Program-made: the position numbers and the translations under genes
Virus record (IMG/VR): IMGVR_UViG_3300037851_000620
Span: 1-64,000 of that record
Direction: 5' to 3' (one strand)
DNA from: a virus
Taxonomy: Duplodnaviria; Caudoviricetes
DNA length: 64,000 nt
In this document: positions 1,177 through 49,312 of the stretch, in pieces
Layout: every line of letters starts with the position of its first letter
Numbering within the stretch: the stretch's first letter is position 1
Notes under the pieces: generated by a model
What the model was told of the DNA's origin: nothing
The model's database searches: none
The model's input: the letters and a program-made list of their open reading frames with translations, nothing else

Positions 1177-2265
1177 ATGAAAGATATTGTCAAGAACGTT
1201 GCGTTTGTTTCAACAGGTAGAGATATTGGGGGAGTGACAGCATATGTTGGAAGACTGCTGACAGGCTTGAAGAAGATAGGACATGACGGTAAACTGGTAT
1301 TTATTACGCGAGGTACTGGAAAACCTATTGCAGATGCGTACAGACGTTTTGGTAATCACGAATACATACTAGCAAAGAATACAGAACAAATAGTAAATAT
1401 ACTGAATAGTTTTGATTTGGTTGTGCACGAGATGCCTGGAGGTTTCGACGATCATAGGCATTTCAAGACTTATGGAAATACAACATTACCATGGTTCTAT
1501 GACGGTTTATATAAAGTCACGGCTCCACAAACAGCCTTGTTATTAGATACAGGAACATTGACGAAATGGTGTCCATATATAGATAAATTTGAAGAGTTTT
1601 GTAAGTATTTTATTTCAATAAAGACAGGATTATCAAATTTATACGATGAAATGCGTGGGAATGTTGACGTTTATACCGTAGACGTTCCTATCAGTGTTGA
1701 TGAGACAGATCTTTCAAGGTTTGGAAAAAGAAATAACCTTATTGTTTCTACAAACAGGCTATATGCGGAGAAGCGATTGCATTTTCTAATTGATGCTATG
1801 CATTTTTTACCAAACTGGCGTGCCGAATTGCATACAGGTAGATATTATTATTTCTATGCCAAAAAGATAGAAGAAATTATGGCACAAAATACTATTTGGT
1901 ATAAGAATCTCGATATAAACTATGATGTATATTACGATGCAGCTTTGACGTATGCAGCTTCATATCTTGGAAATGGTAGCGATGGTGGGATGGAATGTGT
2001 ATCTATGGAGGGAGCAGTTCGTGGTGCTGTTCCATTGATTACAGACAATTGGGTTGCTCCTCATCTTGACAGTCCGGCTGAAGATATTGTTTACAAGTTT
2101 AGTATAAAGGATGGTAAGACTAATTTGTTAGACGTGATTTCCAACATTGATCCGCAATCAAGCGATTATCTAAGACGTCAGCAAGAGATATTTGAATATG
2201 TGAAGACGTTCAAAAGAGATACAGTACAAGCAAAGAAATTATTGTGGTTGATGAAATATGCATAG
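1177..2265 (+). CDS. GT-B fold glycosyltransferase (candidate DNA-modifying)
   Basis: GRDIGGVTAYV N-terminal motif, STNRLYAEKR, GGMECVSMEG (EGF/E7E-like); start moved to ATG 1177 because GTG 1144 lies inside the terminator. Confidence 0.7.
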   Translation: MKDIVKNVAFVSTGRDIGGVTAYVGRLLTGLKKIGHDGKLVFITRGTGKPIADAYRRFGNHEYILAKNTEQIVNILNSFDLVVHEMPGGFDDHRHFKTYGNTTLPWFYDGLYKVTAPQTALLLDTGTLTKWCPYIDKFEEFCKYFISIKTGLSNLYDEMRGNVDVYTVDVPISVDETDLSRFGKRNNLIVSTNRLYAEKRLHFLIDAMHFLPNWRAELHTGRYYYFYAKKIEEIMAQNTIWYKNLDINYDVYYDAALTYAASYLGNGSDGGMECVSMEGAVRGAVPLITDNWVAPHLDSPAEDIVYKFSIKDGKTNLLDVISNIDPQSSDYLRRQQEIFEYVKTFKRDTVQAKKLLWLMKYA

Positions 2266-2277
2266 GAGTTTGGAAAT

Positions 2278-3315
2278 ATGGCTACAGTGAGTTTGTTCTA
2301 TATGTCAAAAGTGAAGTTTGGTGGTTTTGCTGCATACACATCTCATTTATGCAGGGCATTTCGTCAATGCGGGCATGAATGTAATATCTATAAGATACGT
2401 GTGCGTACCGAAAGGAATGAGCGAGACTTCTTAGATGGTATCGGTTCTACAAACATTTCCATTGAAGATGCCTTGATAGTTATAAAGAATTCAGATTATG
2501 CTATCGTCACTGCTACATTTTGGCGTGGTTGGCATGAGCCGATTTCCAAACTGATAGAGGCAGGTTGTGAAGTTGTGCTTCATGATCATACGGATTATCG
2601 TGGCGACTTCAAAGATTTTCTACAGACCTATGGTGTTAGACCAGTTGTTATCAGGATTGCAAATTACACCAATTTGCATCGCGATGGGTTAGATCCGGTA
2701 TATATTCCTCATCCTTACGTTCAATTCCAAACACACAAAGTTCCACGTGATGTTCACGCTGTATCTGTATGCAGACTGGATTACGACAAGCATACAGATA
2801 TTCTTATCCGTGCTAATGAGCATTTACCAAAGGATAAACAAATACAATTATGGGGTGCTCATACACGGATGTATATGTTTCAGAAAGTGGTCGGGAAGTA
2901 CAAAGGTTGGAATGATAACAAGCATTACACTGGTCCTAATTATCCCCGTGAACAGCAAACATTTCCAAGTACCCCAGGATTTGCTGTTATGTTGAATCGT
3001 AGAGCAGAATTTTCGTGTGATATGAGTGCTATCAAAGGTGACGGTGGTGGCACACAATATTCATTTCTGGAAGCAATAAATGGAAATGCTGTGCTTGTGT
3101 TGAATCGTAAGTGGTTCGTAAATTCCGATGATGAATTGATTGAAAATTTCAATTGTTTGGCTGTAGATGACGATAAACAATTGGCATCATTGCTAAAATT
3201 GCAGTCTTGGGGGGATTTCCAAACTATTCGTGCAAATGCCAGAGTGGTGTTAGACGATCATGGCTCAGAATATGTTGTGAAGCGTTGGATAAAATTTCTT
3301 AGAGGTAAAATTTAA
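2278..3315 (+). CDS. GT-B fold glycosyltransferase (candidate DNA-modifying)
   Basis: KFGGFAAYTSHL, SVCRLDYDKHTDIL, GGGTQYSFLEA motifs; lies in a cluster with modification enzymes. Confidence 0.7.
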   Translation: MATVSLFYMSKVKFGGFAAYTSHLCRAFRQCGHECNIYKIRVRTERNERDFLDGIGSTNISIEDALIVIKNSDYAIVTATFWRGWHEPISKLIEAGCEVVLHDHTDYRGDFKDFLQTYGVRPVVIRIANYTNLHRDGLDPVYIPHPYVQFQTHKVPRDVHAVSVCRLDYDKHTDILIRANEHLPKDKQIQLWGAHTRMYMFQKVVGKYKGWNDNKHYTGPNYPREQQTFPSTPGFAVMLNRRAEFSCDMSAIKGDGGGTQYSFLEAINGNAVLVLNRKWFVNSDDELIENFNCLAVDDDKQLASLLKLQSWGDFQTIRANARVVLDDHGSEYVVKRWIKFLRGKI

Positions 3316-4304
3316 TGGGAAACAAACTAACACGTCCTTGGTCGGTGCAAGTTGAATTGGCAGAAGGATGTAGCAGGACATGTCCGTTTTGCGGAATTAA
3401 CGGTATTCGCGAGAAGCCTGGAAATTACAAATTTATGGAAATCTATATAGCACGTATGTTGGCAAAACAGTGTGCCGAATTTTGTCCCGATTCTCGCTAT
3501 GAATTTGCTATGCATGGCGAGCCGACAATGAATCCTAATCATTTGAAAATATTCAACATATTCAGGCAACATTTGCCAAAGACACAACTTCAACTGACTA
3601 CAAATGGTGTAAGATTTCTGAACGCAAAGATTGCTCAAGAAAATGTAGAAGCAATCTTTACAGCAGGGATAGACTTCATCATCTTGGATACATATTATCC
3701 AGAACGTGATAAGTTGCGTGAGATAGCGTATAGTTTGAAAGGGATTTCCATTGTAGATTATTATGAGGAGATGGCTCCTGCAGGTCAGTCTCCATGGTAT
3801 AACCATCGTAGGAAGTTGAATAATACGGTTATACTGATGGATGATTTGTTGAGTCGGAATGGGGAAGTCCGTTCGCGTGTTATTTATAACCATGCTGGGA
3901 ATGCAAATCCAAAAATTGCTCCTCCTGTTGACAAACCATTGAAGAAAACGTGTACGATGCCGTTCAGAGAAATTGCTGTGCGTTGGGATGGCACTGTTGC
4001 ACTTTGTTGTCATGATTGGAAAGGCGAGTATCCGATTTCCAACATTCATCACGAGCATCTAGAAGACATATGGAATCATCAGCGATTTGAAGCAGCACGG
4101 ACATTTCTTCAGAATAAGAAAAGGATTTTCAATCCTTGTTCGCGTTGTGATGTTGACGCTGGTGCACGGTCTGGATTATTACCAAAATATCCTGAGCCGA
4201 CGAAAGAAGATGCCGAAATTGTTTATGAAACAATCAATGAAGGACACAAGACTACAAACCATCTTTTGAGAGTTACAAAATCATTTTTGGAGTTATTGAA
4301 ATGA
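3315..4304 (+). CDS. Radical SAM / SPASM-twitch domain protein
   Basis: CSRTCPFC (CxxxCxxC), HGEP, TTNG, and C-terminal CTMPF...DGTVALCC...C-x2-C. Confidence 0.9.
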   Translation: MGNKLTRPWSVQVELAEGCSRTCPFCGINGIREKPGNYKFMEIYIARMLAKQCAEFCPDSRYEFAMHGEPTMNPNHLKIFNIFRQHLPKTQLQLTTNGVRFLNAKIAQENVEAIFTAGIDFIILDTYYPERDKLREIAYSLKGISIVDYYEEMAPAGQSPWYNHRRKLNNTVILMDDLLSRNGEVRSRVIYNHAGNANPKIAPPVDKPLKKTCTMPFREIAVRWDGTVALCCHDWKGEYPISNIHHEHLEDIWNHQRFEAARTFLQNKKRIFNPCSRCDVDAGARSGLLPKYPEPTKEDAEIVYETINEGHKTTNHLLRVTKSFLELLK

Positions 4305-5209
4305 GTGATTACGAGATTTCCAAAGATGCTTTGAAACGATTCTTTGGCTTCATCAAAGAGCGGCATGCTATTTATATTCGGAGGAACAGAGGCGATGAAT
4401 GGCCATGGACAGACGACAAAATCCTTCAGACATATAAATTCACAAATATCTTTAGAGAGCTGGATACAGGCACAGTGCACTGTCGAACAGCGATACGGGA
4501 GCCTTATGCGGACGATAGAGAACTATTCTTCAACATCGCCACTTATCGTCTTTATAATTACATCGATACACAACGGGAGATTGGATACATCTATCATTAT
4601 GATCCCGAGAGGGTGATGAATTTGATGTATATTAGAAGGAATCGTGGCGACCGTATATTTACAGGCGCACATATGATTACTGGTACTCTTGGAGGGGATA
4701 AAATTTGGCAGGTGTTTGGCTTATGTTTTGGTAAACTGTGGGAACAACGTCGCGAATTAGAGCCAAAACCTGGCGATACTTTGGAAAAAGCATTCAATCG
4801 TCTGAATAAACATAATCCTGGATATGGTCCATTCATTGCTTATGAAGTCATCACAGATTTGCGTTGGACACGATACCTTGACGATGCAGATGATATTATG
4901 ACATGGGCGAATCCTGGTCCAGGATGTATGCGTGGTATCAATCGTTTGCTTGGAAATCCTGTGTATAACAAGAAGGATTATAATGTCAAGAAAGACACCA
5001 AGAGGTATCCAGATAGAGAAGGTTATCTTGACATAATGCGTTATCTATTGCGTGCATCTAGCAATATGACATATCTTCCAAAGTGGATTTCAGCCTTGGA
5101 AATGCGGGATATTGAGCATTCCCTTTGCGAATTTGATAAGTACGAGCGTGTGCGTTTGGGTGAAGGAAGACCACGGTCACTATATAATCCACCAATCGTA
5201 CAAGTTTAG
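4301..5209 (+). CDS. aGPT-Pplase / 5-hmdU kinase helical-domain family protein (amino acid:DNA transferase-like)
   Basis: FIKERHAIY..R..G..WPWTDDKIL..YKFTNIFRELD, GYGPFIAYEVITDL, ANPGPG...G, DIEHSLCEFDKY: hallmark motifs of this DNA-hypermodification family. Confidence 0.85.
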   Translation: MSDYEISKDALKRFFGFIKERHAIYIRRNRGDEWPWTDDKILQTYKFTNIFRELDTGTVHCRTAIREPYADDRELFFNIATYRLYNYIDTQREIGYIYHYDPERVMNLMYIRRNRGDRIFTGAHMITGTLGGDKIWQVFGLCFGKLWEQRRELEPKPGDTLEKAFNRLNKHNPGYGPFIAYEVITDLRWTRYLDDADDIMTWANPGPGCMRGINRLLGNPVYNKKDYNVKKDTKRYPDREGYLDIMRYLLRASSNMTYLPKWISALEMRDIEHSLCEFDKYERVRLGEGRPRSLYNPPIVQV

Positions 5210-5211
5210 TA
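5201..5211 (+). promoter_or_regulatory. Conserved phage motif CAAGTTTAGT(A), copy 1
   Basis: One of six identical 10-mers, all at gene boundaries. Confidence 0.6.
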
Positions 5212-5252
5212 AAGTAGAGCTAGAATCCATTTGTAAGGCTCCAGGAGGAGCT

Positions 5253-5546
5253 GTGAGCGTTTTATGTGAGCAGTATAGTTATAATGATCAGCCTAATAAA
5301 GGAGAAAAGGTTGTAAAGGCTTCTCTGGAATTGCAGCTAGAGGCTGCCATTCAAGCATTTGAAAAGAAGCATGGGTATCGTCCGCATTATATTGAAATGC
5401 GTGTTGATGAGATTGATAATGTTAGTTATGCACCTTTGGATATTCATGGTGTTACGAAAGGACTTCCTCCGCACAATTACAGGCTTCATCCTGTGGTGAA
5501 GAGGAAACCAATCCGGAAAGTTGAAAGGATATCGTATGAAGGTTAA
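5253..5546 (+). CDS. Hypothetical protein
   Basis: SD GGAGGAG before GTG 5253; preceded by the CAAGTTTAGT motif at 5201. Confidence 0.6.
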   Translation: MSVLCEQYSYNDQPNKGEKVVKASLELQLEAAIQAFEKKHGYRPHYIEMRVDEIDNVSYAPLDIHGVTKGLPPHNYRLHPVVKRKPIRKVERISYEG

Positions 5547-6036
5547 AGTGTCGCGAGGGACTTTGTTGGATATTTGCGAGCAGCGCATCAATCATATTCT
5601 GAAGAAGAATGCGGACTATGGCGATGCTTGGCAAAATAATGAGGGATTTACACCCCTCTTGCGTATGCGCGAGAAGCTGCTGCGTGTTGAAACATTGTCT
5701 GATGGTCGTAAGGCTATGGTCGAAGACGAATCGGTCGATCAGGATGTTGCTGAAATCTTCGACTATGCGCTTCTGTATATGCTTTGGAAAGCGTGGCAAC
5801 CAAAGTTGGGCGAAAGTGTTCTGTATATGCTTTGGAAAGCGTGGCAACCAAAGTTGGGCGAAAGTGTTTATGAAAAGAGTCGTCAGATGTCATATGAAGA
5901 GCTTGGAAATTTCTTAGGAGGAATGAAAGATGAAGAAAGCGAGTGGGGAGATATTCGGAATCAGTTGCGGGATGCTGTTGCTATTGTGTTTGGTATTGAT
6001 CCTGACTTGCTTGACGACAGCGGCACTCCCGAGTAG
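5536..6036 (+). CDS. Nucleotide modification associated domain 1 (DUF1599/Nmad1-like) protein
   Basis: KKNADYGDAW...LRMREKLLR...ESVDQDVAEIFDYALL motif pattern. Confidence 0.7.
   Translation: MKVKVSRGTLLDICEQRINHILKKNADYGDAWQNNEGFTPLLRMREKLLRVETLSDGRKAMVEDESVDQDVAEIFDYALLYMLWKAWQPKLGESVLYMLWKAWQPKLGESVYEKSRQMSYEELGNFLGGMKDEESEWGDIRNQLRDAVAIVFGIDPDLLDDSGTPE
5771..5868 (+). repeat. Perfect 48-bp tandem duplication (LYMLWKAWQPKLGESV x2)
   Basis: ttctgtatatgctttggaaagcgtggcaaccaaagttgggcgaaagtg at 5771-5818 and 5819-5866. Confidence 0.95.
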
Positions 6037-6421
6037 TGTATTTTGTATATTGTGCACAGAGACACCTGAGTCATCAAGTACTCCTGAGCCATCAAAGACT
6101 CCTGAACCATCGGCGACGCCTGTTCCTACAAACACCCCTGTGCCATCGGCTACACCTTTTCCAACTGATACTTTGGAGCCAACTCCATCGTCGCCTCCTG
6201 AAGAACAAACAAGTACTCCATTCGCGACAGTCACCAAAACGTCGATTGTATATCCACCACCAGACGAGCCTGACGATCCGACTCCAATCCCTTCCCCGAC
6301 AGCATTACCAAACACAGGGATATTCGATGATATGCCTATGGATTTACGTTATATGTTTGCCATTGCGCTTATTTGCATAGTCATTATAGTTCCGCTCGCA
6401 ATTCGGAGGATGTTGTCATGA
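5972..6421 (+). CDS. Signal peptide + Pro/Thr-rich stalk + LPNTG sortase-type anchor protein
   Basis: Hydrophobic N-terminus, PTNTPVPSATP repeats, LPNTG followed by a TM helix and RR tail. Confidence 0.65.
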   Translation: MLLLLCLVLILTCLTTAALPSSVFCILCTETPESSSTPEPSKTPEPSATPVPTNTPVPSATPFPTDTLEPTPSSPPEEQTSTPFATVTKTSIVYPPPDEPDDPTPIPSPTALPNTGIFDDMPMDLRYMFAIALICIVIIVPLAIRRMLS

Positions 6422-6606
6422 CTCCAGAGATTTCCAACGAGAAAATTGTCATCTTGGTAGTACTGATTTGCGTGTTATTGTTCTTTCTTGCGCTCACATT
6501 CTCATCATGGGCAAGGCAACAGGTCGAGATTATCAAGATGAGAAACATCATACGTTCTGAGCAGGAAGCAGATGAGCAGCAATACAATCAGTCCATCGCA
6601 AAATAA
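6418..6606 (+). CDS. Small membrane protein
   Basis: SD GGAGG at 6405, one TM helix. Confidence 0.6.
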   Translation: MTPEISNEKIVILVVLICVLLFFLALTFSSWARQQVEIIKMRNIIRSEQEADEQQYNQSIAK

Positions 6607-9256
6607 TCCTATATGTATTGAATGCGGATGTTGGAAATCGTGTAAAAATCCGTTTATGGAGTTTTCCGGCAGTAGTCAGCCGGAACTCCTTATCATAGGG
6701 GAAGCACCAGGTGAGCGAGAAGATCAGAAGGGAATACCGTTTGTTGGCGATGCTGGCTCATTATTACGTAATGCACTTATAGAATTTGGCTTCACAGATG
6801 AAAATACAGCGTTCACGAACGTTGTGCGTTGTAGACCTGTTGGCAATAAGATTACCAAGAAGGCTATAAACTATTGTTCAAGATTTGTTCTTGAAGATAT
6901 AGAGAAGCTGAATGCTCCGATAGTGTTTTTGCACGGGAACGTTCCTTTGAATGCTGTGCTTGGTCAGACAGGTATATCTCAATGGAATGGTGTACCTGTG
7001 GAAAAGGAGAGATTATATGTCCCTCTTTTTCATCCTGCATATATATTACGAAATTCTAATGCCACAGACGAATGGCTTGCTGGAATGCTTGGGGCATTAG
7101 AGGGGACTGAGAAGAAAAAGAAATTCAATCGTACATTTCCAAAGATTTTAGAAGACATTCAGGCTATGAAAGATCAATTGGCTGAATGCGAGTATATATC
7201 TTATGATGTTGAAACGTCATCGTTAGATGCATTTTCCGAAAATTCTAGTATTATATCGGTATCACTGGCTGGCGGTGACTATTCATATGCATTTCCAATA
7301 GATCATCCTGAATCTTGGTGGAATCGCGAATCATCTTATAAACATATGTCTGAGCGCGATGCTGTTGTTCAGACATTGACAGATATATTGTTGGATCACG
7401 ATGGTCATGTCATAGGTCATAATATAAAATTTGATCAGATGCAGACGTTTGGAAATCTTGATTTCATGTTTGCTTCTGGTGGTGACACTATGCTTGTTAG
7501 TCATTTGTTGGATAGTCGGCAAGGAATTCATGGTCTGAAGCGTTTGGCTGGTATAAATTTGGGTATGTATGAATATGAGCAGGAATTGACGACATATATT
7601 CGTGAGCATCGCGAAGCAAATCCAAACTATGGTGGTTCGTATGCTAAGATACCTTTGGAAATATTGTTACCATATGGTGCAATGGACTCTGAAGCAACTC
7701 TTATGCTTCACGATAAGCTGTTTCCTGAGTTGACAGACAGACAAGCAATTTTATACGATCAATTGATATTGCCAGTCAGCGACGTTCTTTGCGAAATGCA
7801 ATGTAATGGTATCAAATTGGATAAATATATTGCCGAAAGATATCTTGCGATATATTCCCAAAAACAAAGAGAGACATATGTAGAAATTCTTGATGATCAT
7901 TATGTAAGGATTATGTCTAAAGATAGAAACAAAGCATTGAAAGAAGTGAACAAAAAGAAACGAAAGAAGGTTATATACGAATTCAATCCTCAGAGCTTTG
8001 CACAACTGTTAGATTTGTACGAAAATTATTATAACATAGCATTACCAAAAGTGACACGTCCTGATGGAACGGTGCGTTCTACAACATCGGGGGGAGCACT
8101 TCGACCACAAGAAGATATGTATCCTATCTTGAGAATGATAAGATATTATAAACTTCTTGGTAAGATGATGAGCACTTATCTAAGACCTGCGGCAACTGGT
8201 GTTTGGGAATCTGGTGATGGGCGTGTAAGAACGTCTTATAATTTGCATGGTACACGAACAGGACGACTCAGTTCTAGTGGTGACAAAGATAAGCATTCAA
8301 AAGGCATGAATTTACAGAATATTCCAACTCCTGAGAAGGAGCCTGGAACATTATTGGAAATCTTGCCAATCAAGAACATCTTTACACACAGTTATCACAG
8401 AAAACCAAGCCTGTGTGTTTCAAGTATCGGCGAGAAGTTTATCATGTACAATGCGAAAGAGTTGTACGGAGATGGTGTAGTAATGTCGGTAGATTTTAGT
8501 GGTATGGAATTGCGTTGTTTTGCATCGCTTGCTGATTGTGAACCAATGTTGGAAATCCATAGGAGCGGAAAAGACTTTCATTCGAGCGTTGCGTTGCGTG
8601 CTTTGACAGGGAAACCGATTCAAGACATAACATTCGAAGAGATTTCCAAGCTTGAGAAGTCTATAAGGTATCGTTATAAATGGACGAATTGGACGTTGCT
8701 TTATGGTGGTGATGCGAATACACTTCATCATTTGTATAATATGCCGATGGATGAAGCAGAACAACTGGTTGCAGATTATTTTGAGGCATTTCCTGAAGTG
8801 CGGGATTTCCAAGATAGTACAATCGAATTTGCTGAAGATCATGGCTATGTCGAAAGTCCGTTTGGCAGACGTGAATACTTGTATTATATCAATGATTCAG
8901 ATATGAAAAAGCGAAACGCAGATCGTAGAGCGGCAGTGAATATGCCTGTACAATCGGCAGCTTCTGATACCTTATTGCTTGCTTTGATAAATGTTGCTGA
9001 TAGGTTGCGAGGCATGAAAACACGTTTGGTAAATACCGTTCATGATAGTATTATGTTAGATGTTCCGAAAAGCGAAGTCATGCAAGCTGCGAAGATTTGT
9101 GTAGATTGTATGGAAAATGTAAAGGATTACGCAAAAGACTACGCTCCTGAAATAGATATGAGTTGGCTGAAAAGTCCACTCAAGGCTGATGTTGATGTTG
9201 GTTCTCATTATGGTACGATGATCAGTTTGGAAAAGTGGGAGGAATTGTATGGCTGA
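6572..9256 (+). CDS. polA: DNA polymerase family A with N-terminal family-4 uracil-DNA glycosylase-like domain and 3'-5' exonuclease
   Basis: UDG: C-x2-C, IGEAPG, TNVVRCRP, FHPAYILR; Exo: YDVET, HNIKFD, YGAMD; Pol: RTGRLSS, NLQNIP, DFSGMELR (motif A), R...K..N....YG (motif B), VHDS (motif C). Confidence 0.95.
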   Translation: MSSNTISPSQNNPICIECGCWKSCKNPFMEFSGSSQPELLIIGEAPGEREDQKGIPFVGDAGSLLRNALIEFGFTDENTAFTNVVRCRPVGNKITKKAINYCSRFVLEDIEKLNAPIVFLHGNVPLNAVLGQTGISQWNGVPVEKERLYVPLFHPAYILRNSNATDEWLAGMLGALEGTEKKKKFNRTFPKILEDIQAMKDQLAECEYISYDVETSSLDAFSENSSIISVSLAGGDYSYAFPIDHPESWWNRESSYKHMSERDAVVQTLTDILLDHDGHVIGHNIKFDQMQTFGNLDFMFASGGDTMLVSHLLDSRQGIHGLKRLAGINLGMYEYEQELTTYIREHREANPNYGGSYAKIPLEILLPYGAMDSEATLMLHDKLFPELTDRQAILYDQLILPVSDVLCEMQCNGIKLDKYIAERYLAIYSQKQRETYVEILDDHYVRIMSKDRNKALKEVNKKKRKKVIYEFNPQSFAQLLDLYENYYNIALPKVTRPDGTVRSTTSGGALRPQEDMYPILRMIRYYKLLGKMMSTYLRPAATGVWESGDGRVRTSYNLHGTRTGRLSSSGDKDKHSKGMNLQNIPTPEKEPGTLLEILPIKNIFTHSYHRKPSLCVSSIGEKFIMYNAKELYGDGVVMSVDFSGMELRCFASLADCEPMLEIHRSGKDFHSSVALRALTGKPIQDITFEEISKLEKSIRYRYKWTNWTLLYGGDANTLHHLYNMPMDEAEQLVADYFEAFPEVRDFQDSTIEFAEDHGYVESPFGRREYLYYINDSDMKKRNADRRAAVNMPVQSAASDTLLLALINVADRLRGMKTRLVNTVHDSIMLDVPKSEVMQAAKICVDCMENVKDYAKDYAPEIDMSWLKSPLKADVDVGSHYGTMISLEKWEELYG

Positions 9257-28783: not shown

Positions 28784-29179
28784 ATGGCGAAACTTTTAGT
28801 GATACTTCAAAATGCATATAAAGCACCAAGAGGCTTCAAGCCATCTATGTCAAATAGATGTTTTCTGAAGTCACGGACAGGATCAAGACTTCAGAGAATA
28901 TTGCCCGTTGGTGTCGATGTTTATATCATCAATGCTTCTCCTGAAATTGGAAATCATGCAACGTCTAATTATTCTCCACAACCAGACTATGTGCAGAATG
29001 AATTAGACGCTGTTATGCCGGATGTTATTTTAGCTTGTGGTAACAATGCTAAGAAAGTTATAAACTTGCTGAATTTGCAAGTTCCAGTAATTTCTATGAA
29101 GCATCCAGCATCTAGAACACTTACAAACACTGAGCTGTATGCTGTAAAGAATGAGCTATCAGAGTGTTTCAAGAGATGA
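28784..29179 (+). CDS. Possible small UDG-superfamily fold protein
   Basis: LVILQNA...SRTGSRL...PDVILACG..A...HPASR pattern. Confidence 0.4.
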   Translation: MAKLLVILQNAYKAPRGFKPSMSNRCFLKSRTGSRLQRILPVGVDVYIINASPEIGNHATSNYSPQPDYVQNELDAVMPDVILACGNNAKKVINLLNLQVPVISMKHPASRTLTNTELYAVKNELSECFKR

Positions 29180-33494: not shown

Positions 33495-33833
33495 ATGGTT
33501 GATAAGATAAATGCTCATTTCGATTTTGTGGTTCAGGGTGTCACTTTTGAAGATGCTCGTGCACTCAATATGCGCATCATTAACGCTGTTGAGTTGTTGG
33601 ATGCTTCTACTGGTGGAGGCTGGTATGTAGAAGACGACAAAGATAATGTCGAGAAGCTCGCAGAGTTAGATGCTAATATTTACGAAATATTGGATGCAAA
33701 GTTCAAGACCGTGACGAAAGAGGCAGACACTGGCAATGCGTCTAACGAAACAATCATATGGCTGAGAGGTTATGCTCAAGCTATCTGTTATGCGAAGAAG
33801 GTTGTGAGTGGGGAGATTGGGGATGAGGGCTGA
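33495..33833 (+). CDS. Hypothetical protein
   Basis: SD AGGAGG, preceded by the CAAGTTTAGT motif at 33466. Confidence 0.7.
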   Translation: MVDKINAHFDFVVQGVTFEDARALNMRIINAVELLDASTGGGWYVEDDKDNVEKLAELDANIYEILDAKFKTVTKEADTGNASNETIIWLRGYAQAICYAKKVVSGEIGDEG

Positions 33834-34146
33834 TCCGAAAACATTCACAAACAAAGATGTACAACGTGCGGCTCAGGAATTACAGAAGTATCGTAATTGT
33901 CCTGAAAAGTTGATCAATGAGGTTGACAGGCGTTGTAGGAAGAAGAACATTCCAATTAATTGGCGTCAAACAGGCTCTCATGTTGTTGGACAGGCTCCGA
34001 ATGCTGATGTTGTGATCCCCAATCATGGAGAGATTCCAAAAGGAACGCTTATGAGCATCGTCAAGATGCTTGCTGCAATCGGTGTGGTTATATTCATTGG
34101 CTTCTGTTATTACTCATACATTCTGATTCCTGCAGGAGGGAACTGA
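33823..34146 (+). CDS. HicA-like mRNA interferase domain with C-terminal TM helix
   Basis: RQTGSH...VVIPNHGEIPKGTLMSIVK matches the HicA pattern; then LAAIGVVIFIGFCYYSYIL. Confidence 0.6.
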   Translation: MRADPKTFTNKDVQRAAQELQKYRNCPEKLINEVDRRCRKKNIPINWRQTGSHVVGQAPNADVVIPNHGEIPKGTLMSIVKMLAAIGVVIFIGFCYYSYILIPAGGN

Positions 34147-34560: not shown

Positions 34561-34766
34561 TGAAAATCCGGATGCGTGCAATTTTATCCGTAATTCACAT
34601 ATTACTTATACGAGCCGACAAACTTGCCAAAGAAATTCCACCTGATCCTTCAACTGAAGAGCATTTATCGACACTCAAGAACGACATCAGTCATGCTGAG
34701 ATGGTTGTGACGAACATGCTTGTAACATCACGCATAGCAGATATGTCTTATGAAGATCCTAATTGA
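34560..34766 (+). CDS. Hypothetical protein
   Basis: Start moved to ATG 34560 (TAATG coupling). Confidence 0.5.
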   Translation: MKIRMRAILSVIHILLIRADKLAKEIPPDPSTEEHLSTLKNDISHAEMVVTNMLVTSRIADMSYEDPN

Positions 34767-35307
34767 TAAAGAGTTGAAAGAGTGGATTAAGACAGGCATA
34801 TATCCGCACGATTTGGCATACATAAATCCAGCCAGCGTCGATCTTTGCTTGGGTCATGGTTGGATAGATATAGAAGGCTATACATTGTCAAACAACGATT
34901 TAACGCTGTATCCTCGCTCTGCATATACAGACGTGTGGAATACATTTGCCAGGATCTTCCATTTCCAAAGGCATCCAACGGCTGTTCTTGCTACAACATT
35001 AGAGCGAGTTGTGCTTCTTCCTGATGAAGCAGCGTCTATCAAGCTGAAAACGACTCCGAGTCGTGAAGGTCTTGGGCATCCGATTGCAGATTGGGTAGAT
35101 CCTGGATTTCAAGGTCAACTTACGCTCATGCTTCATGCTCACAAACGGATTTCCATCCCGTATGGCAGGAGAATTGTTCAGATAGTGGTGTATAAGCTAG
35201 ACTATCCTGTTGAAATCTCTTATGCACACACAGGACATTATCAAGATCAGGCTGGTCCAACAATTTCATGGAGGCATATGTGGTATGCTAGACATAAACG
35301 ATCCTGA
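34750..35307 (+). CDS. dcd: dCTP deaminase
   Basis: INPASVDL.LG, SREGL, VDPGFQGQLTL, IVQIV, GHYQDQ.GP. Confidence 0.9.
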   Translation: MKILIDKELKEWIKTGIYPHDLAYINPASVDLCLGHGWIDIEGYTLSNNDLTLYPRSAYTDVWNTFARIFHFQRHPTAVLATTLERVVLLPDEAASIKLKTTPSREGLGHPIADWVDPGFQGQLTLMLHAHKRISIPYGRRIVQIVVYKLDYPVEISYAHTGHYQDQAGPTISWRHMWYARHKRS

Positions 35308-35800
35308 TACATTCATACAACCACGCTGGAAGTTTTGTAGTGCACGCGACACACATGTCAATATGCCAGCGTTCTTCTTGAAGACAGCCATCGATATTCT
35401 GACTCCGCTGTATTCATGTAATCGTCCTCCTGGAGCTGCAGGAGCAATCCTTGAGACAAAATCTCATGTAATCATTGCGCCTGTTATACCAACGATAGGA
35501 TATCCAACTTGTAAGCATGTTGGGTGCGATATCGTTGATGGGCACTGTGTAAGAGCAATTCATGCTGAGAGGCGTGCGTTGTTGTGGGCAGCGAAATACG
35601 GTATTCCTACAGACGAGTCTACTGTGTACTCGATACTCAAACCTTGTTATGAGTGTACAAAGGAGCTGATTGCGGCTGGCGTAAAGTTAATTTATTACGC
35701 TGGGATTGCTTATGATGAAGACAGGACAAAAGCTGTACTCAAAGCAGCAGATGTCCTGTGCATTGCGGTAGACGTCAAATTGGAGTACGGAAATGCTTGA
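35285..35800 (+). CDS. dCMP deaminase
   Basis: GC...GHCVRAIHAE, PCYEC, AGVK. Confidence 0.85.
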   Translation: MLDINDPDTFIQPRWKFCSARDTHVNMPAFFLKTAIDILTPLYSCNRPPGAAGAILETKSHVIIAPVIPTIGYPTCKHVGCDIVDGHCVRAIHAERRALLWAAKYGIPTDESTVYSILKPCYECTKELIAAGVKLIYYAGIAYDEDRTKAVLKAADVLCIAVDVKLEYGNA

Positions 35801-36947
35801 AACAACCAGATATATAACATCGACGAGCTTCTTTATTGATCAGTTGGAGGCGTTGCTAAAACAGGGATGCAAAGTGGCACCGAGAGGCAATGAAACAAAA
35901 GAATTATTGAATCAATTCTTTGAGATTTACTATCCAACCTATCGCTGTATCTTGCTTCCTAAACGTAGAAATAATATCTTTGCTCAGATTGCAGAGACAT
36001 TGTGGATGATTGCTGGACGTGACGATATTGAGTGGCTGAGTTTCTATCTTCCTCGTGCTCCACAATTTAGCGATAACGGACGTTCTTGGCGTGGGGCATA
36101 TGGTCCGAGATTGAGGAATTGGAACAGTTCTGATAAGAAAGTTGATCAACTTTCTTATGTTGTTGAAGCCTTGAAGAACGATAGTCTTACACGTCAAGCA
36201 GTCATTTCCATTTGGGATCCTGGTATCGATACCACTCCTGGTAAAGATATTCCTTGCAATAACTGGTTGCAATTCATCTTACGTGATGGGTTGTTGAGTA
36301 TGAGTGTTGCACAACGTTCATCAGATTTGATATGGGGATACAGTGGCATAGATGCATTCTCATGGTCTGTACTTCACGAAATGATGGCGTATTGGACAGA
36401 GTCTAATGTTCATATCCGCTCTCATCTTGTTGGCAGTCAACATATCTATCAGCAGCATTATGTTCTTGGGTACGACATTTTACAGAATTACAAGGCGTGC
36501 ATGTATGATAGAGTTTCGTGTCTTAATGCGCATCTTCTCGATGATGTGTATCTTCCTCCTAAGTTCCAAACTCCGTTTGATAAGATCGATGTTGCATTAC
36601 AGCACCTGTTTCGGCTCGAGCTGTTTATGCGGAATGGAGCGATGTCGTTTCAGGCTATATGGGACGATATCGAAACGGATACATGCATATCCTATGATCC
36701 ATTCTTGATTCAGTGTGCGCAGATGCTTTTGGTGTATCATGTATACCAAAACGTGAAGAAAAATCACGAAGGCGAGGACTTAGATAAGTTCAAGCCTGAT
36801 ATTATGCAGTTCGTTAACAAAATGGAAAAGAGCGATTTTCGCCTGTGTGCGGTCGAGTTCATGTCACGTTATATGAACATCGAGACCGATGATATGGCTC
36901 ATTCTAGTGACGTGTTGGAGCTGAAACGATTGAATATTTTGCAATAA
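35793..36947 (+). CDS. Thymidylate synthase-superfamily enzyme (hydroxymethylase-like)
   Basis: AYGPRLR, TRQAVISIWDP, DIPC (catalytic Cys), RSSD..WG...D, SQHIY. Confidence 0.85.
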   Translation: MLETTRYITSTSFFIDQLEALLKQGCKVAPRGNETKELLNQFFEIYYPTYRCILLPKRRNNIFAQIAETLWMIAGRDDIEWLSFYLPRAPQFSDNGRSWRGAYGPRLRNWNSSDKKVDQLSYVVEALKNDSLTRQAVISIWDPGIDTTPGKDIPCNNWLQFILRDGLLSMSVAQRSSDLIWGYSGIDAFSWSVLHEMMAYWTESNVHIRSHLVGSQHIYQQHYVLGYDILQNYKACMYDRVSCLNAHLLDDVYLPPKFQTPFDKIDVALQHLFRLELFMRNGAMSFQAIWDDIETDTCISYDPFLIQCAQMLLVYHVYQNVKKNHEGEDLDKFKPDIMQFVNKMEKSDFRLCAVEFMSRYMNIETDDMAHSSDVLELKRLNILQ

Positions 36948-44979: not shown

Positions 44980-46452
44980 ATGAAGAAAAAGATGAAGAAA
45001 GGTATCTATTCTCCCGAAGATATGCAGGCTCTTGGTCGTGCTATCGGATCCTCGCTGGCGTCTGCTCAGTTCGGCATGCAAAACGCTCAGCGACCTGCAG
45101 CCTTCGAAATGTTCAAGGAAGCCAGCATCACCCCGACGTCGGTTTCCATTTACGGTCGTAATTCGATCTTCGATGCGTGCAGCCCTGGTGATGTGTTTGG
45201 TCTTCAGGTTCAGACGATTGGTTTGATGCCGTGGATCGGTTGGCGTCCGAATCGCTTCTATCGCCGACATGTTGATTTCATCCCGTGGTGGGGTCCTGCT
45301 GGTACGAAGAGCGGCTCTCCTGCAACAGGTGCGAAGTCTCCGTGCGACGACCCGACATCTTGGGAATATGCAATCTGCGGATACGACCTGTGCCACACGT
45401 CCTTCTACAGCATTGGCAGCGAAGGTCTCGATCCTCATACGATTGTGCAAGATCGTTGCGAAACGTCGCCTCGTTATCGTCTGAATGGTCAGTTGATCAG
45501 CGACGATGTTGAGTGGCAGATGAACGGTATCATGAACGTTCTCGCTCAGCAGATGCGCCGTGCACTGATCCATGGCTCTCACGACAATGCCAATGAGATG
45601 GATGGTCTTGAGCAAATCATCAAGACAGGCTACACCAACGACAACAATACTACCTGCCCTCAGATTGACAGCATCTTGGTTGACTGGAACAACGACGACC
45701 TTGATGGCGCTGTGAACAATCTTGGAAATTTCTTCGATTATCTTGACGAAGTTGTGACCGAGATCGAATGGCGTGCTCAAGAGCTTGGTCCGATCCTCGA
45801 GACCGATATGGTTCTGATCACATCGCGCTTTATGGCAACCTGTTTGCTCGATGCTTATGCATGCTACACGACCTGTGGTGTGACTGATACCAATGACGTC
45901 ACGGATCAGGCACTGCGTGCTCAACAGCGTGCGGCTCGTATGGCTCTGAATGGTGGTCCGCTCTATGATGGTGCTCGTGCGGTTGGATATCTCAACCTGA
46001 AATCTGGGCGTCGGCTGCCGATCATCGTCGAGGATGCTTTGGATATCTCAAAGTTTTCGACGACATACTGCACCGACGTCTACCTGCTGACTCGGCGCAT
46101 CGGTTCGCGCGACGTTCTGTATGGCGAATACCTGGATATGCGCGAGTACGAGAATCGTGTGAAGAGGCAGTTTACAAACTTCTCCGGTCGCTCTGATTCG
46201 ATGGGTCGCTTTGCTCTTAAAGGCAAAGAGGACAACTTCTGCATCAGCCTGATGATGGGCACGTCTCCAGAGATCTACTTGTCGGCTCCATGGGCACAGG
46301 TTCGCTTCCAGGATGTTTGCTGCACTCGCAAGCGCACTCCGCTGACTGGCGATCCTTTCCAGCCGTATTATATGCCTGGTGGGAAGCCTTTGCATACTGC
46401 AACTCCTCAGACCGATTGTGGTCCGGACTGCGGTCAGGATGGAACTGCATAG
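44980..46452 (+). CDS. Major capsid protein
   Basis: 490 aa after the scaffold, strongly biased codons, GD/EFDGL-like EMDGLEQII motif, followed by terminator hairpins. Confidence 0.8.
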   Translation: MKKKMKKGIYSPEDMQALGRAIGSSLASAQFGMQNAQRPAAFEMFKEASITPTSVSIYGRNSIFDACSPGDVFGLQVQTIGLMPWIGWRPNRFYRRHVDFIPWWGPAGTKSGSPATGAKSPCDDPTSWEYAICGYDLCHTSFYSIGSEGLDPHTIVQDRCETSPRYRLNGQLISDDVEWQMNGIMNVLAQQMRRALIHGSHDNANEMDGLEQIIKTGYTNDNNTTCPQIDSILVDWNNDDLDGAVNNLGNFFDYLDEVVTEIEWRAQELGPILETDMVLITSRFMATCLLDAYACYTTCGVTDTNDVTDQALRAQQRAARMALNGGPLYDGARAVGYLNLKSGRRLPIIVEDALDISKFSTTYCTDVYLLTRRIGSRDVLYGEYLDMREYENRVKRQFTNFSGRSDSMGRFALKGKEDNFCISLMMGTSPEIYLSAPWAQVRFQDVCCTRKRTPLTGDPFQPYYMPGGKPLHTATPQTDCGPDCGQDGTA

Positions 46453-46550: not shown

Positions 46551-47366
46551 ATGAGAACAATATTTGTAAAGACACGTTGGTATTATCAATCTTATACAGA
46601 CTTCTGGAAACTGGTCGAGTTATCTGATTTTCAGACGTGTTTTGTTGATGAGATGGACTTGTATGCTGAAGATACGGCATACATCGTTGCTCCGATGAAT
46701 GGGGAATGGAGACCGTTCGTAGATGAGCGTCCAAACAGAAAGGCTAAACTCATCTTGTGGAATCTTGAACGTCCAGGTGGTAGTGGTTCAGTTGCAAAAT
46801 ATGCATCAGACAATTTAGAACTGGTTGGAAAATATCTTGATAAGGTTGTTGTATCTGATAGAAGCCTTGCTAATCTTTGCGGACTCGATTACATTATTAT
46901 GGGTGGGCATCCCGATCTTGGAATTCCTGGAATGCCATCGCTGAAGAAATACGATCTAATTCACCTGTCATGTTATAGCAATGCTAGAAGCTGGATGTTT
47001 GATACTCCAGATCATCCAAAGACAATGTTGCTTGGAAACTTGACTGTTGCAAGGAATGGTTGGGGTCAGGATCGTCACTGGAGTCTTCAAGAATCACGAT
47101 TCATGCTGAACGTTCATCAGGATGGATTTCCATTTATCGAGCCGTTGCGCTTTATTCTTGCAGCTGAATATGGACTTCCAGTAATTTCTGAGGCATCAAA
47201 TTCATTCTTTCCATACGAGAATTTTGTTATTCCGTTGTATGATGTAAAGAACGGTTATTATTCGTATGGAGATAGTGTATATATGCATGGAATAAATTTC
47301 AGAAATTATGTCAATAGGCATTTTCCATTTCGCAGATGTGTAGAGGATTATGTAAATACGCTATGA
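46551..47366 (+). CDS. Glycosyltransferase-like protein (CgeB/GT-B C-terminal type)
   Basis: SRFMLNVH...EPLRF..A...G.PVISE; preceded by the CAAGTTTAGT motif. Confidence 0.6.
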   Translation: MRTIFVKTRWYYQSYTDFWKLVELSDFQTCFVDEMDLYAEDTAYIVAPMNGEWRPFVDERPNRKAKLILWNLERPGGSGSVAKYASDNLELVGKYLDKVVVSDRSLANLCGLDYIIMGGHPDLGIPGMPSLKKYDLIHLSCYSNARSWMFDTPDHPKTMLLGNLTVARNGWGQDRHWSLQESRFMLNVHQDGFPFIEPLRFILAAEYGLPVISEASNSFFPYENFVIPLYDVKNGYYSYGDSVYMHGINFRNYVNRHFPFRRCVEDYVNTL

Positions 47367-48106
47367 TTACAGCATGCTACATACTTCACTATGGTGTTGA
47401 ATGGCTGTACTGGTCTGTGCGTTCCGTTGTAGATTCTGTTGATAGGGTAAATTTGTTCTATACACCATTTCCATCCCATGGTCACGGAACAAACCTTGTG
47501 TGTCCAGAAACTCGCGATCAGTTGCGTGAGGCATTAATTCCCCTTCTTGTTCACGACTATGATATAAGATGGTTTGATTGTCCTGACAGATTTCCTCACG
47601 AGGGTGCACATAGAACGTATGCGGTAAATACTTGCTTTGATGATGGTGCTGATAAGATTGTTGTTGTAGATGCCGATGAAATTTGGGATAGCGAAGTATT
47701 GTATAAAGCATTGAAAGAATCGTATAGCGATAATAGATCATATCGTATAGGGATGCGGCATTTTTGGCGATCTACGAAATGGGTGTGTGATGATGCAGCT
47801 GCTCCCACGCGAATTATAGTCAGGGATGGAAATCCGACTACAGAAGGCTATCTTCCAGGCAAAGTTCTTCATATGGGTTATGCTCAAACTCCTGAGATTA
47901 TACGCTATAAACAGGATATCCATGGGCATAAGGCTGAGTGGAGGCAGGGGTGGTTCGAAAATATCTTCTTGCCATGGAAGCCTGGTGTTGGTGATGTGCA
48001 TCCAACAAATCTGAAATATTGGGATCCTGTAGAATATAAAGACGATGGACTTCTTGAATATTTGATAGGCGATCATCCTCAGTGGGGAAAGGACTTAATT
48101 GTATGA
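47363..48106 (+). CDS. GT-A fold glycosyltransferase
   Basis: VVVDADEIW (DxD motif), HMGY. Confidence 0.7.
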   Translation: MITACYILHYGVEWLYWSVRSVVDSVDRVNLFYTPFPSHGHGTNLVCPETRDQLREALIPLLVHDYDIRWFDCPDRFPHEGAHRTYAVNTCFDDGADKIVVVDADEIWDSEVLYKALKESYSDNRSYRIGMRHFWRSTKWVCDDAAAPTRIIVRDGNPTTEGYLPGKVLHMGYAQTPEIIRYKQDIHGHKAEWRQGWFENIFLPWKPGVGDVHPTNLKYWDPVEYKDDGLLEYLIGDHPQWGKDLIV

Positions 48107-48714
48107 ATATGAAGGATTTGGAATCGCTTGCAATCAAGAGTATTCACGAACCATGGGGTGTTGGAATTCCTGGTCTAAAGACTAATTCTGAAGCAGCTGC
48201 ACCATATTACAGGTTTCTGCACAAGGTTGTAGATCTTTATAAGCCAGAGGCAGTCCTTGAATGTGGTGTGTATCTTGGTGTGGCATCTGTTCATATGGCT
48301 GTTGCAAACTTGGATACAAAAGTTATAGGTATAGATATTTCTTTGCGACAAGAGCCACAAAAGTATGCGGAATTGTATGGAAATTTGACATATATCGAAG
48401 GCGATACAACATCGCGACTTACATGTGATCGTGTTGAAAAGATTCTAAACAGAAAGAAACTTGGTATACTGTTTCTAGATTCTGAGCATAACGGAACAGT
48501 TCCAACGCTGGAATATCTGATATATAAGAAGTTCTTTGCTCATGAGTGTCTGATTGCTTGCGACGATATCCTGGACAAGCGTATGGAGGAATTCTGGGTG
48601 AAACTTCCAGGAGAAAAGGCAATCTTAAATTATCTTCATCCATCACCATATACAGGAGTTCCTGAGCCTGGGTTTGGAATCAGCATTGTGAGGACTAATT
48701 ATAATCATGCCTGA
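48103..48714 (+). CDS. Class I SAM-dependent methyltransferase (Methyltransf_24-like)
   Basis: VLECGVYLG.AS, IGID, IEGDT, LFLDSEH, ACDD. Confidence 0.8.
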   Translation: MNMKDLESLAIKSIHEPWGVGIPGLKTNSEAAAPYYRFLHKVVDLYKPEAVLECGVYLGVASVHMAVANLDTKVIGIDISLRQEPQKYAELYGNLTYIEGDTTSRLTCDRVEKILNRKKLGILFLDSEHNGTVPTLEYLIYKKFFAHECLIACDDILDKRMEEFWVKLPGEKAILNYLHPSPYTGVPEPGFGISIVRTNYNHA

Positions 48715-49312
48715 TATTTCCATTATCATTCCGCATAAGCGCACAGAATTAAACGATTATTGCTTGGAGCTGAATCTGCGCATGCTTCTAGAAAATACAA
48801 GATGTAGTTATGAGCTGATAATCGATACAGAGGCTCCGAAAGATCCGTATAAGATCTGGAATGAGGCATCACGGTCTGCACGTGCTGACATCCTCGTGTT
48901 TACAAACTCTGATGTTCTTATGGCGATAAATTGGGATTTCCATTTCGTTGCACATATGGAGTACAATGCTATCATTACAGGCTATCTTGTAGAGCCAGGA
49001 AACATTGGCGTTGCTGATGTAAATATTCATCGTGATTTTGGAAAAAATCCGCATACGTTCGACAGACTGGCGTTTGAAGCGTTTGCTATACAGCACCCTG
49101 TTCCAGATTATACAATTCAACGAGGATGGTACATGCCATGTGCTATGCGCAAAGACTTCTTCTTGAATGCTGGTGGATTTGATACTACTCTTGGGTTCCC
49201 AAATCCTAATGACATCATCTTTTGGGAACATTGTATAAAAGATTATGGAACCAAACTAATTCGAGTAAAGTCTTTTGCATATCATTTTCAAAACTTGAGT
49301 GGGAGAAGCTGA
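48707..49312 (+). CDS. GT2-like glycosyltransferase
   Basis: ISIIIP, WNE, LVFTNSDV, GGFD, YHF. Confidence 0.75.
   Translation: MPDISIIIPHKRTELNDYCLELNLRMLLENTRCSYELIIDTEAPKDPYKIWNEASRSARADILVFTNSDVLMAINWDFHFVAHMEYNAIITGYLVEPGNIGVADVNIHRDFGKNPHTFDRLAFEAFAIQHPVPDYTIQRGWYMPCAMRKDFFLNAGGFDTTLGFPNPNDIIFWEHCIKDYGTKLIRVKSFAYHFQNLSGRS

Follow-up and report, generated by a model that had tools for sequence, protein, structure and literature searches.

The gene cluster at positions 1177-6036 of a 64,000-nucleotide stretch of phage DNA (IMG/VR record IMGVR_UViG_3300037851_000620, positions 1 to 64,000; hereafter the window) is read here, tentatively and at a little short of an even chance, as a DNA sugar-modification cassette making glycosylated 5-hydroxymethylcytosine that is tailored by a radical S-adenosylmethionine (rSAM) enzyme. 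The window forms the first 64 kb of a single 75,746-bp contig from an uncultivated phage of a 76-kb type, and all of its genes lie on the plus strand. The cluster consists of two glycosyltransferases (GTs), GTa (1177-2265, in a frame open from a GTG at 1144) and GTb (2278-3315, called start 2302), an rSAM enzyme (3315-4304), an aGPT-Pplase of clade 1 (HMUDK_hel, here Pplase1; 4301-5209) and an Nmad1 (DUF1599) protein (5521-6036). A first-pass annotation of the window had proposed five genes with one intervening open reading frame (ORF), an arrangement borne out by Pfam families, folds and the ORF at 5253-5546. It had taken them for a DNA base hypermodification cluster, which is supported by the recurrent linkage of GTb, Pplase1 and thymidylate synthase (TS) homologues and by a cassette slot that is shared with a DNA kinase and the transferase ADDT in related phages. 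The sugar-linked pyrimidine that it suggested is the most likely product.

Neither GT has a Pfam family at the curated threshold and each was therefore examined separately. GTb lacks a Glycos_transf_1 match, and a few of its relatives carry PF00534 or PF13524. Its relatives in the protein collection number 72, and 35 of them were aligned for an AlphaFold2 (AF2) model (pLDDT 94.3, pTM 0.92) that identifies GTb as a GT4-like GT-B enzyme. A Foldseek search of the PDB with this model returned GT4 GT-B enzymes at E 1e-8, and structural comparison (VIA) gave HepE at Z 25.2 (304 aligned residues, rmsd 3.2) and the T4 DNA alpha-glucosyltransferase (AGT) at Z 23.2 over 318 residues, the latter tied with many GT4 enzymes. 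Matches in BFVD include a cyanophage 'DNA alpha-GT' and a GT of SP-15. A weak AAA_18 match in the C-terminus of GTb (E 0.22) was set aside as noise, given the GT-B model. GTa is divergent and represents a rare family, with 5 relatives in 5.8e9 clusters and about 20 representatives in 1.84e9. Its best Pfam match is Glycos_transf_1 at E=0.13 (12 bits vs a cut-off of 26.4), and neither GT has a Pfam match to AGT, PF11440. Indirect evidence from profiles and a predicted model suggests that GTa is a rare, divergent paralogue of GTb in the same superfamily: hhalign against the GTb family gave a probability of 90.6% (E 1.3e-6, 276 columns), local hidden Markov model (HMM) matches were reciprocal (1e-7), and the ESM Atlas model of GTa (pTM 0.81) reached a TM of 0.75-0.83 to GT4 models. 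By Atlas features the nearest clusters are those of the PF11440 DNA alpha-glucosyltransferase (0.98 to AGT clusters), and a PDB profile search returned WbaZ-1 at 4.7e-4 and T4 AGT at E 0.009, the latter confined to the N-terminal 83 residues. The earlier assignment of both enzymes to GT-B is upheld by the GTb model with its HepE match and, for GTa, by the hhalign and Atlas comparisons. Among 50,697 phage records neither GT had a tblastn match and the whole cluster had no megablast match, while no loci related to GTa were found in the viral, genome or metagenome contigs searched.

The rSAM enzyme carries a SPASM/twitch domain (SPASM 54.9 bits, cut-off 21.5; Radical_SAM 36.5 bits, cut-off 29.5) and its sole PDB match is BtrN (4m7t; E 1.5e-10, over two short stretches), with the CxxxCxxC motif seen in the alignment. 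Among cultured phages (tblastn, E 0.01) it matches only BtrN-like genes of Campylobacter phages and nothing in M6-type phages; it is unrelated to M6 gp53. The role first envisaged for it was the remodelling of amino-acid adducts, which gp53 performs; that role is not supported for such a BtrN-like SPASM enzyme. Pplase1 matches PF18723 across profile positions 3-277 of 281 (E 7.6e-47, 160.4 bits vs a cut-off of 25), is 39-41% identical by tblastn to proteins of M6/YuA-type phages (39% to M6 ORF055, or gp55, which is annotated as aGPT-Pplase clade 1) and is 60-65% identical in relatives of the same lineage. The helical enzyme had been regarded as an amino-acid-transferring aGPT-Pplase, however it belongs with gp55 in clade 1 and not with clade 2/ADDT. 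Reconstitution of the M6 pathway was achieved with the kinase gp54 and the clade 2 enzyme gp51 alone, the clade 1 protein gp55 being dispensable, and a DNA-glycosylase-like fold has been predicted for Pplase1 (PMC8989533). A catalytic role is nonetheless possible, as Pplase1 retains E..LCE, which lines up with the Cys/Glu motif found in clade 2 transferases from both M6 and the lineage relative L002. Nmad1 matches PF07659 marginally (26.1 bits vs a cut-off of 25), its orthologue in L002 scores 45.6 bits, and the gene is kept between Pplase1 and the polymerase in L002 and two further relatives, L006 and L154.

No kinase acting on 5-hydroxymethyldeoxyuridine (5-hmdU) in DNA and no ADDT were detected when nearly every plus-strand ORF of at least 100 aa in the 75.7-kb genome was scanned against Pfam, and among aGPT-Pplases only clade 1 PF18723 was returned and no clade 2 member. 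A Walker-A scan of the genome yielded no protein suitable as a 5-hmdU kinase, and HMMs of the kinase and ADDT, made from lineage relatives and M6, had no match in it either. The first-pass annotation was thus right that the window has no visible P-loop 5-hmdU kinase, and the search of the remaining genome that it called for extends this negative to all 75.7 kb. There is also no pyridoxal phosphate (PLP) enzyme. Two kinase candidates were dropped: a 165-aa Walker-A-like ORF at 14496, which has no Pfam match and whose N-terminal motif appears RuvC-like, and the small ORF after Pplase1, which was considered as a split-off kinase domain but has neither a family nor homologues in the related loci fetched.

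The association of these genes extends well beyond this phage. There are 283 GTb relatives in IMG/VR viral contigs, and neighbors within 4 kb were counted at the 41 viral loci where each flank extends for 4 kb or more. Pplase1 was present at 19/41, a TS homologue at 17/41 and an rSAM gene of the same family at 14/41, the usual order being Pplase1-(rSAM)-GTb-TS, whereas HMM searches of 80 GTb loci found no kinase or ADDT. In 20 loci a GTb relative has a relative of the rSAM enzyme (33-52% identity) as its neighbor, and since half of the rSAM-positive loci counted (7/14) are without Pplase1, the rSAM linkage follows the GT rather than Pplase1. The clustering of GTb, rSAM, Pplase1 and TS is not due to chance, and GT-B enzymes in phage metagenomes have been reported to lie often near ThyS homologues (preprint 10.1101/2023.12.21.572611).

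The position of the cluster is equally informative. In IMG/VR contigs of the same lineage the polymerase is 39-48% identical to that of the window, gp32 is 44-58% identical and the flanking genes are conserved. To the left, two conserved genes of no assigned function and no Pfam family (7-393 and 396-1112) have homologues at the same position in L002, L006, L007 and L154 (30-41% identity); to the right, the core of Pplase1, Nmad1 and a family A polymerase (PolA) fused to uracil-DNA glycosylase (UDG) is 45-65% identical to that of relatives that carry the kinase and ADDT. Between these flanks the cassettes differ. The window has GTa, GTb and rSAM, then Pplase1 and Nmad1, and L006 has a GT, a DSP phosphatase and another GT, again followed by Pplase1 and Nmad1. 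L002 and G007/L154 carry a myo-inositol-1-phosphate-synthase-like gene, ADDT, a DSP phosphatase and an HMUDK-like kinase ahead of Pplase1 and Nmad1 (L002:6796-9983 and L154:4741-8674, the latter with an additional FkbM methyltransferase); this inositol-phosphate-synthase cassette gives a hint of a thymine adduct that is linked to a cyclitol or unusual in some other way. L007 has rSAM, GT, GT and DUF2284. Pplase1 and Nmad1 are thus constant in all compared cassettes except that of L007, in which they were not detected at the cassette site and a DUF2284 gene (predicted metal-binding; L007:10900-11802) stands in their place beside the rSAM and two GT genes. Conserved flanks around differing cassettes in L002, L006, L007, G007/L154 and the window mark this site as a hotspot for the exchange of modification cassettes.

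Evidence on the acceptor base comes from a nucleotide-pool triad at 34750-36947, which comprises a dCTP-deaminase-fold protein (34750-35307; Pfam DCD), a deoxycytidine monophosphate (dCMP) deaminase whose gene overlaps the next (35210-35800; Pfam dCMP_cyt_deam_1) and a TS homologue (35793-36947, referred to as 35793). The last is the sole TS homologue in the genome and its best PDB match is the CMP hydroxymethylase MilA. It has the motifs KDIPCN (L143D, with the catalytic Cys), RSSD (D169 kept) and SGID (N177D; E. coli ThyA numbering). Asp at N177 is the classical switch from deoxyuridine monophosphate (dUMP) to dCMP, and together with L143D/E and a retained D169 it is the signature of dCMP hydroxymethylases (PMC13326640, PMC8670742). 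By its residues, 35793 bears this dCMP-hydroxymethylase signature, newly recognized here, rather than the signature of a methylase or 5-hydroxy-dCMP synthase. The Asn at 177 that marks dUMP hydroxymethylases is present in the homologues from SP8, an M6-like phage and a ViI-like phage and absent from 35793. The D169N change of 5-hydroxy-dCMP synthases of the RB69 gp48 type is also absent, Asp being kept, so that a hydroxymethyl rather than a hydroxyl group is expected. The 5-hmdU framework in which the cluster was originally placed is therefore doubtful.

The Asp signature is not peculiar to this contig. Among the best 120 TS homologues 35 have Asp and 78 have Asn, with Asp in 31/32 of the closest (40-87% identity), and 33/35 Asp-type homologues fall in one clade (support 0.89). 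Across 25 aligned Asp-type sequences the L143D, D169 and N177D residues show no variation. A sequencing error was considered as the cause of the Asp in 35793 and rejected, because 35 homologues carry it and it is conserved across the whole clade. An Asp-specific DNA pattern search retrieved 10 metagenome contigs and 0 IMG/VR contigs. In every contig that includes sequence ahead of the Asp-type TS gene (window, L103, L156, L159, L160, L162, and L163), that gene immediately follows one for a dCMP deaminase, and the dCTP-deaminase-fold gene precedes the deaminase where the sequence reaches that far (window, L103, L159, L160, and L162). In contrast, the sister phage G007/L154 (90% complete) pairs the kinase and ADDT cassette with a TS of the Asn type, which indicates that TS type and cassette type change together; no TS homologue was found in the contigs of L002 and L006-L009/L013, which are 10-54% complete. 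The dCTP-deaminase-fold protein has TLML where deaminases have TLE in the PDB alignment, the catalytic Glu being replaced by Met, and the Glu is absent from its orthologues throughout the lineage (TLML, TLIL, or TLVL). Without this residue it is more likely a triphosphatase, probably a dCTP/dUTP pyrophosphatase. In the PDB it is matched by two short entries that bear the name dCTP deaminase (8y1w, 9ln0), and the 8y1w alignment shows the same TLML. The Asp signature, the Glu-less dCTP-deaminase fold, the deaminase and the contrast with G007 favor a T-even-like route in which 5-hydroxymethyldeoxycytidine (5-hmdC) is made and then glycosylated. A large group of Asn-type TS homologues of 500-600 aa in IMG/VR (L086-L100, L104-L116) has an unexplained C-terminal extension and almost always lies directly after a divergent Pplase1-like gene.

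For the acceptor base, the sugar, the order of the steps and the roles of rSAM, Pplase1 and Nmad1 we infer the following pathway. The triad would make the acceptor: the Glu-less dCTP-deaminase-fold enzyme probably yields dCMP, 35793 would hydroxymethylate it and the polymerase would incorporate 5-hmdC. The cassette, in its slot between the two conserved flank genes and the Pplase1-Nmad1-UDG-polymerase core, would then act after replication. GTb and GTa would transfer sugars from nucleotide-sugars onto the DNA, either with one GT acting on the 5-hydroxymethyl group and the other on the first sugar or with the two adding alternative sugars; T4 AGT and beta-glucosyltransferase (BGT) add alternative sugars. 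The BtrN-like SPASM rSAM enzyme may tailor a hydroxyl or carbon of the sugar; it might, for example, oxidize the sugar to its keto form, dehydrate it or epimerize it. Pplase1 and Nmad1 would be accessory proteins that probably serve whichever modifying enzymes the phage has by recognizing or flipping the hydroxymethylated base.

The serious rival to this pathway is a glycosylated 5-hydroxymethyluracil (5-hmU), a base-J-like thymine replacement, which we consider doubtful but by no means negligible. Here GTb and GTa would act without phosphorylation, rSAM would tailor the sugar and Pplase1, like its clade 2 relatives, would have the uracil ring as its target. The required 5-hmdUMP could arise if the Asp-type enzyme still takes dUMP or if the coupled deaminase converts hydroxymethyl-dCMP (hm-dCMP). 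Several observations that weigh against a cytosine acceptor lend this rival its substance. A module of Pplase1, GTb and Asn-type TS is common in viral contigs, and Asn is present in each of the 23 TS homologues next to GTb relatives that have a readable motif, an indication that GTb enzymes usually act on 5-hmU. The Pplase1, Nmad1 and UDG-PolA core is shared with the kinase and ADDT relatives, and to date only phages that modify thymine are known to have Pplase1, Nmad1 and UDG-fused polymerases (PMC8989533, PMC13697223). The dCMP deaminase directly upstream of every Asp-type TS with upstream sequence is of a type that supplies dUMP in 5-hmdU phages (PMC8989533). Being translationally coupled to 35793, it would use up dCMP or might convert hm-dCMP to hm-dUMP. 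On the other side, the Asp at N177 is the dUMP-to-dCMP switch (PMC8670742, PMC13326640) and is clade-wide in these phages. The putative route by deamination of hm-dCMP goes back to older enzymology. Also counting against the 5-hmdC pathway are the want of a Pfam family for either GT, the lack of a detectable T4 gp1-type deoxynucleoside monophosphate (dNMP) kinase, a metagenomic genome and, for GTa, its own AF2 model, which was built from 5 sequences, is poor (pLDDT 50) and gives meaningless Foldseek matches. A broader scheme appears unlikely: the coupled cytosine-specific hydroxymethylase and dCMP deaminase would feed both 5-hm-dC and 5-hm-dU, and decoration would be independent of a kinase, with Pplase1 as a base-handler, two GT-B enzymes and a DNA-acting SPASM rSAM enzyme. 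The outcome would be a new hypermodified base, or two such bases, from a cassette interchangeable with the kinase/ADDT/inositol-type cassettes of sister phages.

The GTs and rSAM may instead act away from DNA, on a virion or host protein or glycan or in tailoring a nucleotide-sugar, and be mere neighbors of the replication genes. The fold matches are to generic GT4 enzymes, whose substrates are lipids, small molecules and proteins, and 15/41 well-flanked GTb loci, some of them in metagenome-assembled genomes (MAGs) of giant viruses, have no Pplase1, TS or rSAM nearby. Another cassette with GTs and a methyltransferase lies in the structural module of this phage behind the capsid gene, so that not every GT here need act on DNA, which is a further point against the 5-hmdC pathway. 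However, the genes lie between replication genes in the same slot as the kinase and ADDT cassette of close relatives, they recur next to Pplase1 and TS homologues, and the GTs resemble T4 AGT and viral 'DNA alpha-GT' proteins; an off-DNA function is thus quite unlikely. Very improbable is the route originally sketched, in which an aGPT-Pplase places an amino acid or amine on activated 5-hmdU and rSAM remodels it, as in M6, with sugars added as well. The M6 precedent is documented (PMC8989533) and the Cys/Glu motif of Pplase1 aligns with that of the clade 2 transferases, yet there is no kinase to activate 5-hmdU and no clade 2/ADDT enzyme, the clade 1 protein was not needed in the M6 reconstitution (PMC8989533), the rSAM enzyme is unrelated to gp53, no PLP enzyme is present and the TS signature points to cytosine.

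Comparison with known systems places the proposed 5-hmdC pathway among several precedents. The T-even phages make glucosyl-5-hydroxymethylcytosine with the gp56 dCTPase, the gp42 dCMP hydroxymethylase, the cd deaminase and alpha- and beta-glucosyltransferases. Like that set, the phage has a TS homologue with L143D, D169 and N177D, a dUTPase/dCTP-deaminase-fold enzyme that judging by its residues would lack deaminase chemistry, a dCMP deaminase and two GT-B enzymes resembling DNA GTs, one of them with T4 AGT among its best structural matches. Unlike the T-even phages, it has no recognizable dNMP kinase, its GTs fall below the Pfam AGT model, and it adds a SPASM rSAM enzyme, an aGPT-Pplase of clade 1 and Nmad1 to a family A UDG-fusion polymerase in an unrelated 76-kb phage type. 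The thymidine hypermodification clusters of M6, PaMx11, ViI, PhiW-14 and SP10 combine a 5-HMUDK kinase and ADDT/aGPT-Pplase2 with PLP, rSAM and FAD enzymes (PMC8989533). Shared with these are the M6 gp55 homologue, a hydroxymethylase homologous to TS, a dCMP deaminase and a location beside the polymerase, and the close relatives L002 and G007 have kinase and ADDT at the same site; here, however, kinase, ADDT and PLP enzyme are missing, the rSAM is of another family, two GT-B enzymes take their place and the TS has Asp, not Asn. The kinase-less Pplase1-GT-(rSAM)-TS modules of uncultivated phages have the same GTb and rSAM families and Pplase1 and likewise no kinase or ADDT, but differ from the window in that it has the extra, rare GTa and an Asp-type, deaminase-coupled TS 30 kb away, whereas theirs is adjacent and Asn-type.

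Cytosine-derived acceptors are also glycosylated in RB69 and DLP3 (arabinosylation of 5-hydroxycytosine) and RL38JI (hexosylation; PMC13326640). By analogy, a TS homologue would make the acceptor as a mononucleotide and several DNA GTs would then build glycans, although the D169N of 5hodCMP synthases is absent and Asp is kept. BtrN (PDB 4m7t) is a radical SAM 2-deoxy-scyllo-inosamine dehydrogenase that acts on a carbohydrate-like secondary alcohol. The rSAM of the window has the same CxxxCxxC motif and SPASM/twitch auxiliary cluster domain; its similarity to BtrN is weak and, unlike that of BtrN, its substrate is possibly bound to DNA. The system is thus a variant of known DNA glycosylation and hypermodification pathways with its own enzyme combination, base-specificity switch and cassette exchange.

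Several other features of the window surround these genes. The polymerase (6572-9256) is a fusion of UDG (95.8 bits), a 3'-5' exonuclease (DNA_pol_A_exo1, 59.5 bits) and a family A DNA polymerase (DNA_pol_A, 222.7 bits), a type that has been described for phages with T-modified genomes (PMC13697223). The cluster had been described as directly upstream of it, however it is near rather than adjoining, because two small orphan ORFs (6036-6380 and 6373-6606) intervene between Nmad1 and the polymerase; these have no significant Pfam family and no homologues in related loci. The small orphan ORF within the cluster (5253-5546, 97 aa), which starts with GTG after AGGAGG and is the probable intervening ORF, has no family and no homologue in any related locus fetched. 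Besides the UDG fused to the polymerase there is a stand-alone UDG-like ORF of 131 aa at 28784-29179 (Pfam UDG at E 8.7e-5, below threshold). Just upstream of the nucleotide-metabolism triad, a 112-aa ORF (33808-34146) has a HicA-toxin-like domain. Genes for helicase, primase and UvrD-type proteins occupy the end of the contig; in a circularly permuted genome they would immediately precede position 1 of the window. Seven exact copies of the 10-mer CAAGTTTAGT are present, always on the plus strand, at 2094, 5201, 10023, 16370, 28510, 33466 and 46536, and allowing at most one mismatch there are 13 matches vs 4.1 expected. One copy is situated in the 3' end of GTa and another right where the Pplase1 gene ends, ahead of the small ORF and Nmad1. 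CAAGTTTAGT is a candidate phage promoter, which would split the cluster into separate transcription units. The second sugar cassette (46551-52144), directly after the capsid gene (44980-46452), includes a rhamnosyl-O-methyltransferase-like gene (48082-48714), a GT2 and Glyco_trans_1_2 fusion (49222-51018), a GT2 gene (50999-52144) and three further ORFs without assignment; its ORFs at 47336-48106 and 48082-48714 have homologues in the relatives L102 and L103, the first also in L160. It possibly serves virion glycosylation.

Hypermodified bases decide whether phages escape restriction and CRISPR and whether their DNA can be sequenced and cloned, and they are a source of DNA-labelling enzymes. 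This locus ties three components to a pathway that is free of a DNA kinase: the clade 1 aGPT-Pplase, a SPASM rSAM enzyme and a GT-B family of phages whose members number in the hundreds. To our knowledge, M6 gp53, whose substrate is an amino-acid adduct, is the one rSAM enzyme for which DNA modification has been described; if the proposed pathway is true, an rSAM enzyme acting on a DNA-linked sugar would be new. With sister phages swapping whole cassettes while the TS homologue switches between Asn and Asp, this lineage would be a natural experiment on the choice of base and the type of modification.

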